A model generated the notes under the pieces. That model made no database searches. It was not told where the DNA came from and saw nothing but the letters and a program-made list of their open reading frames with translations. The position numbers were made by a program, and so were the translations under genes. DNA of 43,457 nucleotides, from sequence record JX865427; one strand, written 5' to 3'. Positions within the stretch are counted from its first letter, which is position 1. The number at the start of each line of letters is the position of its first letter. The stretch is from Escherichia phage JL1. Positions 6,454 through 35,745 of the stretch are shown here, one piece after another.

Positions 6454-6612
6454 CCAATATTAATCACGCGCATGAAAAAGTTGATCGCTATCTGCTGTGA
6501 CTGCAAATTGCATTTTTCGCCCCACGTTCTGCATCTTGCATTGGTTGCCTAGTTCAGCGACGACCGCAATCCGCAACATGCTGCCGTATATTTTGCAATC
6601 CCGGATTTTATG

Positions 6613-6783
6613 CAGTCTCAGACGAGGGGGGTGACAGACCCCCCGTCTAGTCTGAAAGACTGGGAGTTGTCCCGCCTGTCCCGCTCCCCGCCAGGCCGCG
6701 TAATCCGGGGCGGGACAGGGGTGCTGTCCCGCCTTGTCCCGCCCCTGGTTTGTCCCGCTTTTTGTCCCGCTTACTTTATGCAG
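6613..6783. repeat. structured iteron element, copy A (52-bp hairpin module + 7 TGTCCCGC octamers)
   Basis: 52 nt identical to 33957-34008; contains G6/C6 hairpin, agtct-gaa-agact hairpin, octamers in both orientations including palindrome GGGACAG-N5-CTGTCCC. Confidence 0.8.
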
Positions 6784-6876
6784 TTTTATTGCATAACTAT
6801 GCATTATATTCACACTACACGGCAACCAATGCGACCAGCTAAAAGCACACAAAATGGCAACCAATGCGCGCAAAAT

Positions 6877-31245: not shown

Positions 31246-33888
31246 TCATCGTTTGTAAAGTACACCACCCGGTTTCGTCGCCTTCACGATCTCGGCCTTC
31301 ACCGCCTCGGTGATTTGCTTGCCGAACGCCTGCGCGGTACGTGGGTCCGGCCCGCCAACACTGGTATCCGTCTTACCGGTCCCCGTGTAAACGTTAGTCG
31401 TCACGACCATACCACCGCCTGCGCCAGACGCGGCAACGCCCAGTTTCCCGTCCGGCCCGCGCTTCAGTGGCATGATGGCCTCGGGTCCAGCCTCACCCAT
31501 CAACCCAGCGCCCTTAGCGAACGCCTGGACGCCATAACTGAAAAAGGTAGGCTGGCTTACCACTTTCCCCGAATAGGCCGCGAGATTGCCTCCTGCGTAC
31601 GCTCCGCCGTCCGCATTCTTAGTAAGGCCAGAGAAGATAGCGCCGAACAATCCGTTTTTGCCGCCGTCACCACCGAAAGCGCTAACGATGGACTTGAACG
31701 CCTGCGAGGTAGCCAGCTTGATTAATTCGCTCAGGATGGACTTAACCATATCCTTTGCGTTCAGCTTGCCAGTCTCGAAAAACTCGTTCATCGTGTCCTG
31801 CATAGCGCTGAATGTGAATTTCGTGAGAGACGCCATCTGCGTATATCCGTTACCCATCTCATCCACGCTATCCTTAAGCCCGCGACTGAATCCATCCCAT
31901 AACGAGGCGTTAGCGCCGGTCTGTGCTTCCTGCACTTCTCGCAGCTTAGACACCGCCTTGTCAATATCGGTATCGTTAGCGCCTACACGCTTCAGGCGGT
32001 CGATTAGCTGCAATTCTTCGCGCAGGTTTGCCGCTTCGCGAGTGGAAAGCGCATAGCCCGCGGCGGTGGCTTTTAGTTCGGCGTTCTGGTTCTTAACGAA
32101 GGCATCGATCTGCGCGTGCGCCTTAACCTGCTTCTCTTTCGCGTCCAGCAATTTGGCTTCTTCGACGATCTGCTCGCGGACTTCCTTCACGCGCCCGAAC
32201 TCGACTAATTGCTGCTTTTCGGCTGCCGTTAGCGCTCTTTCTTTGCTTGCGGCGATTAACTGCTCATTGTCGGCGATCAGCTTGTTTAAGGCCGCTTGCG
32301 CGCGTTGCGTGCGTGTCTGCGTAGACGCGTTGGCTTCGATCTGCTTGCCGGATTCTCGAAGCTGGGCCAGTTCGCTCCGTGCGACTTCCAGCATTTTCAT
32401 ACCGGCATCCACGCGAACAGCCGCGGCCTTCTTCGGGGCCGGGTCTTTGTAACGCTCGTTTACCTGCTTAACCGCCTCGGCAAGCTCTTTCTCATCAATA
32501 ACGCCGCGCTTATTCAGCAAATTGAGGCGGGCGATCTCGTCGGCGCGCTTCTTCGCGTTAGTTGCGTACTCCTTTTCAAACGCGGCGCGGTCGCGGGCGG
32601 TGCGGTTGGCCTCCTCGTTCGCCTTTGCGGATTCATCTGCGGCGCGGGCGTTGTCTCGCTCCGCACGGTTACGCAGGGTGAGCGACGCCACTACCTTTTC
32701 CTGGGCGACCAGTTCGCTGTAAAGCATGTTAATACGTGCTTTCTGCGCTTCAGTCATTACCCCACCGGCAGCGTTTACCGCTTTCATCTCGGCATAGTAA
32801 GCCGTGGTCATGCGCTGGAGTGATTCGCGCGCTTTCATCTCGGACTCATTGGAGGACTGCGCGCGACCCACATCCAGGATAGCGTCCCACATTGATTTAG
32901 CTGCCGATGTGACGACGTTCATAGACCGCTCAAGCGTACCCATGTTCGCCTTGATCTCATTGGTCATGCTGGTGAACGACGCAGCGGCTGTTTTGTTAGC
33001 CAACGCAACTGCGTCTGTCTCACGACCCGCATCAACCAGCGACTGTACCTGCTGGATCTGCGCTTCGTTTACGACGTGATACTTATCCGCCAGTGCGCGC
33101 AAGCCGCCTACCGGGTCGGTTGACAGCTTCGCCACCGCCGCCACCACATCCTCGATCGGCTGGCTGGACACCTTCGCAAAGTCATTCACTACCTTAGCCA
33201 ATGCGCCAAAGTCACCACCCGCTTTCACACCCGCCGCCGCCAGCGCCTGGATTGTGTCACGCGTCTTGCGAAATGACCCGCCCATGCGCTCGGCGTTCTC
33301 GGACAGCACAAGGATCTGGTTAGCTGTCAGGCCTGAAATATTACCGGACAGCGCCAGCGTCTTATTAAGCGCCGCCACCTGGTTCTCTGCGCGGGTCGTA
33401 ATTGCCACCCCTACGCCGAGCGTTGCCGTTAATGCAGCGATGCCAATCCCTAACGGGCCGAGTGTGCCGACGACATAATGCAGCGTGTTTCCCAGTCCGC
33501 CAAACGCCCCAGTAAGCTGCGGTAGCTGCTGAAGCATAACGCGGTGCACCGGCATACCCATCTCAAGCGTAACCGCGATATCCTGTAACTGGAATGCGGC
33601 GTTCCGCGATGCGAATCCCAGGTTCTTGGTCGACATGCCTAATCGGCTGGCTAGTCGCTCCTGTTTCGTCATGCCGTCGGCGGCGCGCTGCGATTCAGTC
33701 GCTAACTTTTCCATTCCGCCCGCGGCGTCGCCAGTAACCTTTTTCGACTTGCCGAGGGTGTCGTTTAATTTTTTGACTTTCTGTTCTGTGTTCTCGGATT
33801 TCTGCGCAAATGTGTCCAGCACAGTATTCGCCGTTTTAATTTGCGCGACGTCCGCCTTGAGCGTGATGCCCGCTGCCTGATCTGCCAT
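31246..33888 (-). CDS. tail tape measure protein
   Basis: 880 aa, long alpha-helical A/K/E/Q-rich middle, Gly-rich hydrophobic segments; position. Confidence 0.9.
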   Translation of the reverse strand: MADQAAGITLKADVAQIKTANTVLDTFAQKSENTEQKVKKLNDTLGKSKKVTGDAAGGMEKLATESQRAADGMTKQERLASRLGMSTKNLGFASRNAAFQLQDIAVTLEMGMPVHRVMLQQLPQLTGAFGGLGNTLHYVVGTLGPLGIGIAALTATLGVGVAITTRAENQVAALNKTLALSGNISGLTANQILVLSENAERMGGSFRKTRDTIQALAAAGVKAGGDFGALAKVVNDFAKVSSQPIEDVVAAVAKLSTDPVGGLRALADKYHVVNEAQIQQVQSLVDAGRETDAVALANKTAAASFTSMTNEIKANMGTLERSMNVVTSAAKSMWDAILDVGRAQSSNESEMKARESLQRMTTAYYAEMKAVNAAGGVMTEAQKARINMLYSELVAQEKVVASLTLRNRAERDNARAADESAKANEEANRTARDRAAFEKEYATNAKKRADEIARLNLLNKRGVIDEKELAEAVKQVNERYKDPAPKKAAAVRVDAGMKMLEVARSELAQLRESGKQIEANASTQTRTQRAQAALNKLIADNEQLIAASKERALTAAEKQQLVEFGRVKEVREQIVEEAKLLDAKEKQVKAHAQIDAFVKNQNAELKATAAGYALSTREAANLREELQLIDRLKRVGANDTDIDKAVSKLREVQEAQTGANASLWDGFSRGLKDSVDEMGNGYTQMASLTKFTFSAMQDTMNEFFETGKLNAKDMVKSILSELIKLATSQAFKSIVSAFGGDGGKNGLFGAIFSGLTKNADGGAYAGGNLAAYSGKVVSQPTFFSYGVQAFAKGAGLMGEAGPEAIMPLKRGPDGKLGVAASGAGGGMVVTTNVYTGTGKTDTSVGGPDPRTAQAFGKQITEAVKAEIVKATKPGGVLYKR

Positions 33889-33949
33889 TATGCAGTCCCC
33901 CTTTTTATGCAGTTGCCGTCGGTCATTGTATCAGCGAATTTAAAACAAA

Positions 33950-34270
33950 CCTTATTCAGTCTCAGACGAGGGGGGTGACAGACCCCCCGTCTAGTCTGAA
34001 AGACTGGGCTTTGTCCCGCCTGTCCCGATCGGCTAAAACCCGCGGCAGCACTGGCGGGGACAGGGGTGCTGTCCCGCTTTGTCCCGCCCAATTCTGTCCC
34101 GCTTTTTGTCCCGTTTGTTTTATGCACGAAAATCGAATAGATATTCACATTTTGGGGGCGGGACAAAGCGGGACAGCACCCCTGTCCCGCTTTTAATTTA
34201 TGCAATGAAAGTGAGTATATATGCGGTTTAGTGGTGGCGGGACAAAACGGGACGTCCCGCCTGTCCCGCT
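33950..34270. repeat. structured iteron element, copy B (52-bp hairpin module + ~14 TGTCCCGC octamers)
   Basis: 52 nt identical to 6613-6664 plus homologous octamer array; extra inverted octamers; fills the ~385-bp gap between the GT stop and the tape measure start. Confidence 0.8.
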
Positions 34271-34273
34271 CCG

Positions 34274-34950
34274 TTATGCGTGGTTCTGCCGCGCCATTTC
34301 ATCCAGCGCAACTCGTTCCATTAGCTTGATATCTTTAAACGCACGTTGCGCGTTTTCGATGCCGTGCATCTTAAAAAGCCATTCCAGTACGCCGTAGTCG
34401 ATGCCGTATGCGCCGCCGAATCCGGTGCGCCATTGCGTGGAGCAATCCGTGAAGACGGCGACTACCTTCGCGTTGTCGGGCCATAGCGCAACTGGTGGGC
34501 AAACATCTTCAGGGGCCGCGCCCCATAAACTCGCGGCTAAATCTTCGGAGGGTGGCGGCGGGCCATAAAAGCGCCGCGCCGCCTCAATTAGTTTTTTTCA
34601 CGCAACCCCATCAATTCGAGGTAGTACGACGTATGGAACACGCCGAACGCGCGCGGGTAGTTGACCACCAGGCGGCGGACGTTCTCCGCGTTAAATTCGT
34701 CCGGCAGATTCCAGCCTTCTGCGACGTGCATGATGGCCTCGACCATAACATTAAAGCCGTCCGGGTCATTGTCGTCATATTCTGACAACTTGCGCTCAGT
34801 ATCCTGCATGGTCTGCGAAAACTCGTCGATCGGACGGTGGCGCACGGTAAACGTCATTTTGCCAGGTTCGTTTTCTCCGGGGCGCGGGATCTCAATCGGT
34901 AGCTTAAAGGTCGGCTTAGGGTCAAGTGTGAAGAGTGGTGATTTAGCCAT
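34274..34950 (-). CDS. tail assembly chaperone G-T fusion via programmed -1 frameshift
   Basis: A 105-codon stop-free -1-frame ORF with no start codon of its own begins at the slippery heptamer A AAA AAC (plus 34591-34598) at the G stop. Confidence 0.6.
34588..34950 (-). CDS. tail assembly chaperone (lambda G-like)
   Basis: 120 aa directly upstream of the tape measure region; ends GAA AAA AAC TAA; GGAGA RBS. Confidence 0.7.
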   Translation of the reverse strand: MAKSPLFTLDPKPTFKLPIEIPRPGENEPGKMTFTVRHRPIDEFSQTMQDTERKLSEYDDNDPDGFNVMVEAIMHVAEGWNLPDEFNAENVRRLVVNYPRAFGVFHTSYYLELMGLREKN

Positions 34951-34965
34951 TATGTAATTCTCCAA

Positions 34966-34989
34966 TAAAAAAGGGGCCGTACTGGCCCC
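34966..34989 (-). terminator. attenuator/terminator after the major tail protein gene
   Basis: Minus strand hairpin ggggcc-agtac-ggcccc followed by TTTTTT. Confidence 0.6.
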
Positions 34990-35019
34990 ATATTAACACC
35001 CGCTATTTAAGCGACCAAA

Positions 35020-35745
35020 TTACGACAGCGCCTCGACCAAGTCCTTACGGTAAATAACCATATCGGACTGCATAGTGAGGGTGGACTCCACCGTCTCCAC
35101 GTTGTTTACTTCAGCAGATGGAATCTTCTGGAAAGACACCTTAGCCGGGTAAATGCGGATCTCACCTTTGCCGCTTGCCGCTGCCGGGTTGGTGAACTTA
35201 ATCACAGTGGTTTTCTGTGTGTCGTCCAGGTCTTCCAGAATCGGGCGGATCGGGTCTTCTTCGTCGTGGGTGAAAGTGTAGGTCTGGACCAACGGGTTTT
35301 TCGTGGTGTTCAGACTGATCGCGGTATTCACCTGCAACGGCTGGAAGGTGGTGGTCTGCTGGTCGCCACCCGACACACCAACGTTAGTGATAAACGGGAA
35401 GTCGATAAAGCTCGACACCTTCACCACCTCACCCGGTGTGCCTACGCCGAAAGCACCGGTCGGGTATTTGGTTACGTCTTGAGTATCGAAGCGCGCCAGC
35501 GTCACGTCGTTAGCATCCACTTTACCCACGATGAACGCGCGGTTAAGCGCACGTACCCACGGGGTTTTAGTGAACATAACCACGTCTCCCACAGCAAGAC
35601 CATGCGACTCCGCGCAGGTGATAACGCAGCCTTGCGTAAGATCGGAGATTGACGCCGCGGCGTTGGTCGCTGCCGTAACTGCGATGCCTGCACCCAATAC
35701 GGACCCGATCTGCACGCTGGACCCGTTAGGAAGTTGATAACCCAT
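35020..35745 (-). CDS. major tail protein
   Basis: 241 aa; position upstream of the G/GT chaperone genes; AGGAG RBS; followed by terminator. Confidence 0.75.
   Translation of the reverse strand: MGYQLPNGSSVQIGSVLGAGIAVTAATNAAASISDLTQGCVITCAESHGLAVGDVVMFTKTPWVRALNRAFIVGKVDANDVTLARFDTQDVTKYPTGAFGVGTPGEVVKVSSFIDFPFITNVGVSGGDQQTTTFQPLQVNTAISLNTTKNPLVQTYTFTHDEEDPIRPILEDLDDTQKTTVIKFTNPAAASGKGEIRIYPAKVSFQKIPSAEVNNVETVESTLTMQSDMVIYRKDLVEALS

Follow-up and report, generated by a model that had tools for sequence, protein, structure and literature searches.

Two overlapping reading frames in the tail region of Escherichia phage JL1 (JX865427), termed G and T, very probably constitute an ordinary -1 frameshift pair of the G/GT type, in which a G protein of 120 residues and a minor GT fusion of 225 residues would be produced from one and the same start codon. 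The order of the genes, the relation between the two frames, the slippery heptamer at the end of G and the conservation of the arrangement all fit a conserved G/GT tail-assembly-chaperone frameshift, and on this sequence evidence the proposal of a programmed -1 shift, put forward in an earlier note on the same DNA, appears to be well supported. The mechanism as such is known, being that of the lambda G/GT system, and is already annotated in T1-like relatives; the case of JL1 and the other Dhillonviruses is unannotated. From the same evidence we infer the occurrence and rate of slippage, the parts played by a downstream hairpin and by the adjacent stop codon, and the functions of the proteins. 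Throughout, the window is the whole stretch of DNA that was analysed, 43,457 nt in length, in which the genes of the chaperone locus all lie on the minus strand.

JL1 is a Dhillonvirus, that is, one of the HK578/SSL-2009a-like coliphages, and is 97.8% identical to SSL-2009a across the chaperone region. The best nucleotide match to this region, at 99.3% identity and with six matching places, is PQ843332.1 (Escherichia phage P-GXEC-L2P5, 88,607 bp), which at about twice the size of a Dhillonvirus genome is possibly a concatenated or mixed assembly. Pfam and PHROG assignments place G and then T after the major tail gene and ahead of the gene for the tape measure protein when the minus strand is read 5' to 3' (Table 1). 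Also upstream are a tail completion or Neck1 gene (PHROG 169) and a gene for the tail terminator; the downstream tape measure gene is of the lambda type. The records of phages Stevie and AKS96 carry annotated terminators at the position equivalent to the GC hairpin and T-run that separate the major tail gene from G in JL1; the hairpin in JL1 suggests that transcription beyond the major tail gene, into the G–T pair and the tape measure gene, is attenuated.

Table 1. Features of the chaperone locus of phage JL1, with positions counted in the window.
Feature	Position	Strand	Basis
Major tail (tube) protein gene, directly upstream of G	35020..35745	-	Pfam Phage_tail_3, E=1.6e-32; PHROG 584
Terminator-like GC hairpin and T-run, between major tail gene and G	34973..34989	-	Sequence
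Putative Shine-Dalgarno element GGAG, 9 nt 5' of the G start codon	34960..34963	-	Sequence reading
Gene G, tail assembly (tape measure) chaperone, 120 aa, C-terminus ...GLREKN then TAA	34588..34950	-	Translation; Phage_TAC_4; PHROG 569
-1-frame TGA directly 5' of the heptamer, bounding the shift window at 10 nt	34598..34600	-	-1-frame translation
Slippery heptamer A AAA AAC, X XXY YYZ in the G frame	34591..34597	-	Sequence; conserved in relatives
G stop TAA, directly 3' of the heptamer, overlapping T-frame codons CTA and ATT	34588..34590	-	Sequence, translation
T extension with DUF1799 domain, 107 open codons, 105 after slip	34274..34597	-	PF08809; PHROG 680; PHROG 17368; codon variation
Predicted hairpin, putatively stimulatory, outer stem GGCGGCG...CGCCGCC, 7 nt 3' of the heptamer	34554..34583	-	MFE -22.1 kcal/mol
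Tape measure protein gene, 385-nt gap after T	31246..33888	-	Pfam TMP_2, E=3.7e-42, and Tape_meas_lam_C; PHROG 24

The G protein, identical to phage JL1 gp48 and placed in a UniRef cluster with the names 'Tail assembly chaperone' and 'Tape measure chaperone', matches Pfam Phage_TAC_4 (PF08748) along its entire length (residues 1–120 against profile positions 1–124 of 124; E=1.4e-23, 83.9 bits, gathering cut-off 21.1). Its reading frame opens with ATG at 34950–34948 and closes with the codons CGT GAA AAA AAC TAA, such that the heptamer is in the correct phase for re-pairing and abuts the stop codon exactly as the earlier note had described. In the -1 frame, 107 codons are open between the TGA just ahead of the heptamer and a TAA at 34276–34274 (KKLIEAARR..., KKLIEAARRFYGPPPP...ARQNHA), and after a tandem slip 105 of them would be read, beginning CTA ATT GAG... 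(LIEAARR...); the 105-codon extent claimed for this frame therefore holds for the codons read after the slip. The G and T frames are both open only over the 10 nt from 34597 to 34588, in other words over the heptamer and the G stop and nothing else. Necessarily, therefore, any shift between them must happen on the heptamer. The +1 frame at the locus is closed. The predicted fusion is described by join(34950..34591, 34591..34274), with the junction ...GLREKN|LIEAARR....

The T extension has the properties of a coding sequence. Residues 25–101 of the -1 ORF cover the whole of Pfam DUF1799 (PF08809; profile positions 1–80 of 80, E=3.5e-21, 75.7 bits, cut-off 26), and the ORF matches PHROG 680 in addition. 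Moreover, PHROG 17368 is a single profile of 213 positions of which G matches the first half and T the second, and since this profile spans both, fused proteins of such a type are already present in phage databases. A comparison of 21 Dhillonvirus sequences, 20 of them distinct, finds the heptamer and the TAA invariant in every one, and across the same genomes the T frame has no stop codons, as against 86 and 120 in the other two frames. Variation within the T frame falls mainly at codon position 3 (67 of 94 variable sites), and among the variable codons 48 differ only synonymously whereas 23 differ in the residue encoded; the corresponding figures when the region is read in the other two frames are 5 against 68 and 2 against 71. 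These figures carry the signature that would be expected of a coding frame under purifying selection, and the signature extends over the 75 codons ahead of the first potential start.

A first alternative is that the heptamer is a coincidence and the -1 frame beside it either a relic in decay or an ORF open by chance. At the local base composition, an open run of 105 codons would arise by chance in a given non-coding frame with a probability of ~0.014, about 1.4%, and is thus not impossible in itself. Against this reading, the ORF has the DUF1799 match (E=3.5e-21), the substitutions are strongly biased to third positions, and the frame is intact in all 21 of the genomes sampled, with T-region DNA found in 151 phage records, nearly all of them Dhillonvirus, and homologues of T found by tblastn in 1156. 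The chance or remnant reading is refuted by these conservation data, and its probability is negligible.

A second alternative is that T is translated alone, either by internal initiation or by termination and reinitiation after G, such that no fusion is made. The existing records might be taken to favour it, insofar as those of the Dhillonviruses annotate T only as 'hypothetical protein' fragments of 31 to 76 aa or leave the region blank. Yet, as had been claimed for this ORF from the outset, it has no start codon of its own near its beginning: ATG, GTG and TTG are all absent from the first 75 of its 107 codons, the first Met being codon 76, and no start-codon ORF of at least 40 aa was found in the T frame. 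A protein begun at codon 76 would lack most of a domain that starts at residue 25, as well as residues 1–75 that are themselves under purifying selection, and perfect conservation of the heptamer would be left with no explanation. The T-frame codon that follows the G stop is ATT in JL1 and ATC, AAA, AGG or GAG in relatives, none of which is a start codon. Reinitiation directly after the G stop was rejected on the same ground, there being no T-frame start, and the nearby TTG at 34587–34585 lies in the G frame, where it opens only 16 codons (TTG to ATT) ahead of a TAG. Independent translation of T is therefore very unlikely, and a frameshift onto the T frame from within G is the reading that we carry forward.

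Beyond the genus, conservation was followed in two sets of relatives. The first consists of 17 lineages chosen by tblastn similarity to T alone; these are Dhillonvirus, Eiauvirus, seven genera of Drexlerviridae and two unclassified T1-like phages (PsgS01F and Smiley), together with phages of Variovorax, Ralstonia, Rhodobacter, Synechococcus, Stenotrophomonas and Acinetobacter. In 15 of the 17, the junction is either A AAA AAC or G GGA AAC with a stop directly after it. AKS96 and Smiley, the remaining two, carry instead a tetramer that lies one codon ahead of the stop, A_AAG GTC TAA and A_AAA GTT TAA, with the codons GCA AAG GTC TAA and GCA AAA GTT TAA, respectively. By their sequences, these two T1-like chaperone lineages would represent a natural switch from a heptamer-type to a tetramer-type -1 site at a homologous position. 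Conservation of the -1 ORF in relatives, which had been named in the earlier note as a check on the frameshift, is found within the genus, and 15 of the 17 lineages of this wider sample share the whole arrangement.

The second set comes from a scan of IMG/VR with patterns from an alignment of four T sequences, which in combination with the relatives gives 56 distinct junction contexts with T identities down to ~30%. G GGA AAC is present in 35 of these and A AAA AAC in 21, with no other heptamer among them, and the G stop adjoins the heptamer in 53. In the remaining three, the IMG/VR contigs L058, L103 and L107, the stop comes three, one and three codons later, respectively, because the T-frame Leu codon there is CTC; these contigs would serve as natural controls for what the stop codon does. 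It should be borne in mind that one of the two scan patterns ([KG]KL...) spans the junction, such that the K/G-K-L residues are partly pre-selected and their codons are not. As the pattern overlaps the junction peptide, reliance is placed on codon choice and on the separate tblastn-sampled set. In this regard, X is always matched by the wobble base of the preceding gene-G codon, a G before GGA AAC and an A before AAA AAC. GGG is used at the junction in 35 of 35 cases, compared with 18% of Gly codons elsewhere in the same genes, and AAA every time, compared with 32–44% of Lys codons elsewhere in them. Similarly, the T-frame Leu codon is CTA or CTG, either of which creates the G stop, in 53 of the 56 junctions as against 46% elsewhere in the same genes. 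Such a choice of codons is exactly what selection for tRNA re-pairing would be predicted to leave. The apparent family-wide conservation of a weak heptamer with a stop adjacent to it is the one mildly new point to come out of the comparison.

The spread of the G GGA AAC form also bears on the remaining alternative, which is that the shift occurs in transcription and not in translation. RNA polymerase slippage on the A7 tract would add an A to give an A8 mRNA, normal translation of which would yield a G-T protein with the junction ...REKKLIEAARR. JL1 does have an uninterrupted run of seven A residues (34598–34592), and there are bacterial examples of productive polymerase slippage on runs of A or T (PMC5009743). 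The documented bacterial cases, however, involve runs of about nine (Atkins review, PMC5009743), and the C that follows the run and the phasing of the run relative to the G frame, both of which are invariant, are irrelevant to a polymerase. Of the 56 related junctions, 35 are G GGA AAC, in which no homopolymer exceeds three residues and X XXY YYZ is kept. Since this variant retains the re-pairing pattern in the absence of a long homopolymer, the conserved requirement is a ribosomal one. Polymerase slippage is for these reasons improbable as the explanation of the locus, if somewhat less so than separate translation of T, and it is possible as a minor contributor in Dhillonvirus; ribosomal frameshifting is ranked first. 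The two routes are predicted to differ in the residue at the junction, with Asn expected from the ribosomal route and Lys from the transcriptional one.

Turning to features that may stimulate slippage, a GC-rich hairpin is predicted a short distance 3' of the heptamer (Table 1), with a stability that gives z=-2.2 against dinucleotide shuffles. A stable structure at a 7-nt spacing falls within the 5–9 nt range of the dnaX-type signal and may well be stimulatory. The hairpin is more stable than ~95% of synonymous recodings of the same peptide (4th to 6th percentile), a modest excess over the structure that the encoded peptide would impose in any case. Across the 21 Dhillonvirus genomes the outer stem does not vary, and the substitutions affect the bulge, the loop, positions immediately flanking the stem and one inner pair; as a consequence of this invariance, there is no covariation to count within the genus. 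Third-position variation is nonetheless low over T codons 4–14 (34586–34556), which comprise the spacer and the hairpin, where it affects 2 of 11 codons, the remainder of T having 65 of 90 (Fisher P=8e-4, a P value to be taken as rough given that the lineages are not phylogenetically independent). Phages eiAU and Stevie have similar hairpins at the same spacing. A universal downstream structure was considered and rejected, in that only 24 of 63 lineages (~38%) have one that beats 90% of their own synonymous recodings; downstream structure is therefore frequent in the family, and not universal.

Other candidate elements are less prominent. A Shine-Dalgarno-like GGGG at 34609–34606 lies 8 nt 5' of the heptamer, the dnaX-type signal having such an element at ~10 nt, but its last base varies in the genus (GGG, GGA, GGC), and the element is absent in eiAU; as an upstream stimulator it is a doubtful candidate, not being clearly conserved among relatives. 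A scan of positions 33800–35100 against Rfam found no known frameshift element, and returned only sub-threshold, miRNA-like hairpin noise in the gap between T and the tape measure gene. The adjacent stop codon could act as a pause that favours slippage, a role that would fit the old 'shifty stop' idea as it is cited in PMC5009743 and PMC4066793. Equally, its position could reflect selection for a minimal overlap of the frames or for a particular G C-terminus. A broader proposal is that the signal of the Phage_TAC_4/DUF1799 family is a fixed module, consisting of a weak heptamer (A AAA AAC or G GGA AAC) and an immediate stop, in which slow termination would provide a general pause, as a backward 'shifty stop', with hairpins as lineage-specific additions. 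The span of this reading would be from enterobacterial phages to those of Ralstonia, Rhodobacter and Synechococcus; we offer it tentatively, and consider it rather doubtful as it stands.

The picture that emerges for JL1 is one in which most ribosomes that begin at the shared start codon would make G and terminate at the TAA. A minority would slip by -1 on A AAA AAC, with tRNA-Lys moving from AAA to AAA and tRNA-Asn from AAC to AAA, or else, by an alternative route to the same product, peptidyl-tRNA-Asn would slip alone with the stop codon in the A site. The shifted ribosomes would then read CTA ATT GAG... and the rest of the 105 further codons, giving a GT protein in which Phage_TAC_4 is followed by DUF1799. 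Two features would probably tune the rate. The heptamer is intrinsically weak in E. coli, A AAA AAC being a poor shifter there in the study by Sharma et al. in which all heptamers were measured (PMC4066793), and the GC hairpin, possibly with help from the adjacent stop, would raise slippage to the few-percent level that tail assembly requires. Such a combination of a weak site with moderate stimulators fits a need for a small and fixed fraction of GT. In lambda the ratio of G to GT is 30:1 (PMC5009743), and, in the same review, G is said to bind the tape measure protein and the T domain the major tail protein. By analogy, G and the G part of GT in JL1 would coat the tape measure protein while the T part recruits major tail protein, and neither G nor GT, both of which would be required for tails to assemble, would be expected to stay in the virion.

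The 385 nt between T and the tape measure gene merit separate description. This length of non-coding DNA is unusual, as T and the tape measure gene adjoin each other both in lambda and among the T1-like relatives. Within the whole JL1 window there are 17 copies of the octamer GCGGGACA against 1.8 expected, clustered only here (33889–34273) and at 6610–6800. Both places contain a module of ~155 nt, 82% identical between the two copies, made up of four to six GCGGGACA repeats and then a hairpin (CCCAGTCTTTCAGACTAGACGGGGGG...CCCCCCTCGTCTGAGACTG) that spans 52 nt and has an energy of -28 kcal/mol. Of the two copies, one is just upstream of the tape measure gene and the other downstream of the gene for a 754-aa AAA_25 protein. 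Among Dhillonviruses the stem of the module hairpin is conserved and its loop varies, and TGCATAAA motifs come ahead of the repeat arrays. In appearance the module resembles an array of regulator-binding sites or a promoter region, and it has no matching Rfam family over the 33800–35100 scanned. The gap also holds a perfect 33-nt inverted repeat built from the same GGGACA units (34057–34089 and 34156–34188), the arms of which flank an AT-rich spacer of 66 nt. A TTG-started ORF of 105 codons on the minus strand (33888–34205) covers this repeat-rich DNA, has no Pfam or PHROG match and is probably spurious; in some relatives small 'hypothetical proteins' are annotated in the same gap.

With regard to annotation, none of 60 records sampled from the 151 that match, and none of six records inspected in detail, annotates a GT fusion, and a literature search found no paper that describes a G/GT frameshift in Dhillonvirus. 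The exact 225-aa GT, in either version of its junction, is absent from a collection of 15 billion proteins, and GT has no match among solved structures or in NCBIfam. Labels in current use are apt to mislead: PHROG 569 and PHROG 680 label both G and T as 'tail length tape measure protein', a label that has spread into RefSeq product names, and in OM262540 the T region is labelled 'major tail protein'. The joined coding sequence proposed here would correct the annotation of a structural gene in phages that are widely isolated for therapy and for studies of defence systems. Knowledge of tail assembly is unchanged by the finding, which will be unsurprising to phage biologists. What the family does supply is dozens of natural variants, with two heptamers, two tetramers, stops that are adjacent or one to three codons away, and hairpins present or absent, which would lend themselves to tests of the way in which stop codons and weak heptamers keep bacterial frameshifting at a low rate.

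Among known systems, lambda G/G-T is the model for the mechanism. It was described by Levin, Hendrix and Casjens in 1993 and by Xu, Hendrix and Duda in 2004, 2013 and 2014, as cited in PMC5009743. The two systems have in common a pair of overlapping ORFs between the major tail and tape measure genes, a -1 shift on an X XXY YYZ sequence near the end of G, a T region with no start codon of its own and the expectation of little GT beside abundant G. They differ in that the lambda heptamer, G GGA AAG, is a strong one in bacteria and lies five sense codons before the stop, whereas that of JL1 is weak and has the stop adjacent to it, and in that lambda T overlaps or abuts the tape measure gene H, whereas JL1 has 385 nt of repeat-rich non-coding DNA at this point. 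Nor is there a likeness of protein sequence: hhalign finds no similarity to lambda gpG or gpT, with probabilities of 0.15% for an alignment of 19 G sequences and 0.5% for an alignment of nine T sequences, each against the single lambda protein. The description of this tail arrangement as lambda-like, made when the ORFs were first noticed, is thus apt for the mechanism and does not extend to the sequences of the proteins.

Two bacterial systems offer parallels to the signal itself. IS1 insA-insB' has the identical heptamer A AAA AAC, shifts by -1 at a low level in E. coli and makes functional use of the scarcity of the fusion; it differs in its unrelated proteins and in its role, which is transposase dosage. 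It is, moreover, a proven case for which no stimulator has been established (Sharma et al., PMC4066793). E. coli dnaX, with A AAA AAG, an upstream Shine-Dalgarno sequence and a hairpin, resembles JL1 in combining an A-rich heptamer with a downstream GC hairpin at short spacing. In dnaX, however, Z is G, whereas the C of JL1 is classed as being of low efficiency in E. coli (PMC4066793); the upstream Shine-Dalgarno sequence of dnaX has as its nearest equivalent in JL1 an element that is not clearly conserved; and the shifted ribosome terminates early in dnaX, whereas the shift in JL1 would extend the protein.

The true members of the family are the 'tape measure chaperones' of the T1-like phages (Drexlerviridae), such as Citrobacter phage Stevie and Klebsiella phage Smiley, which have the same two Pfam domains and in whose records the frameshift for this domain pair is deposited as a joined CDS. 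These phages belong to a different family and genus from JL1, and their T extensions are 35% (Stevie) and 28% (Smiley) identical to its own. The Stevie junction is A AAA AAC TAA, as in JL1, followed by its hairpin at the same spacing, and the annotation in its record reads 'contains TLS TfmB domain'. In the T1-like relatives T is followed directly by the tape measure gene, where JL1 has its 385-nt gap, and some Drexlerviridae (AKS96 and Smiley) have the tetramer in place of the heptamer. A 'conserved translational frameshift' was reported in the Stevie paper (PMC4319613), and the authors of the study of Rogue1, another T1-like phage, noted that the lambda heptamer was absent and merely suggested that a fusion is made (PMC3496638). 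AKS96 is a relative of Rogue1, and the A_AAG tetramer at its junction explains their remark.
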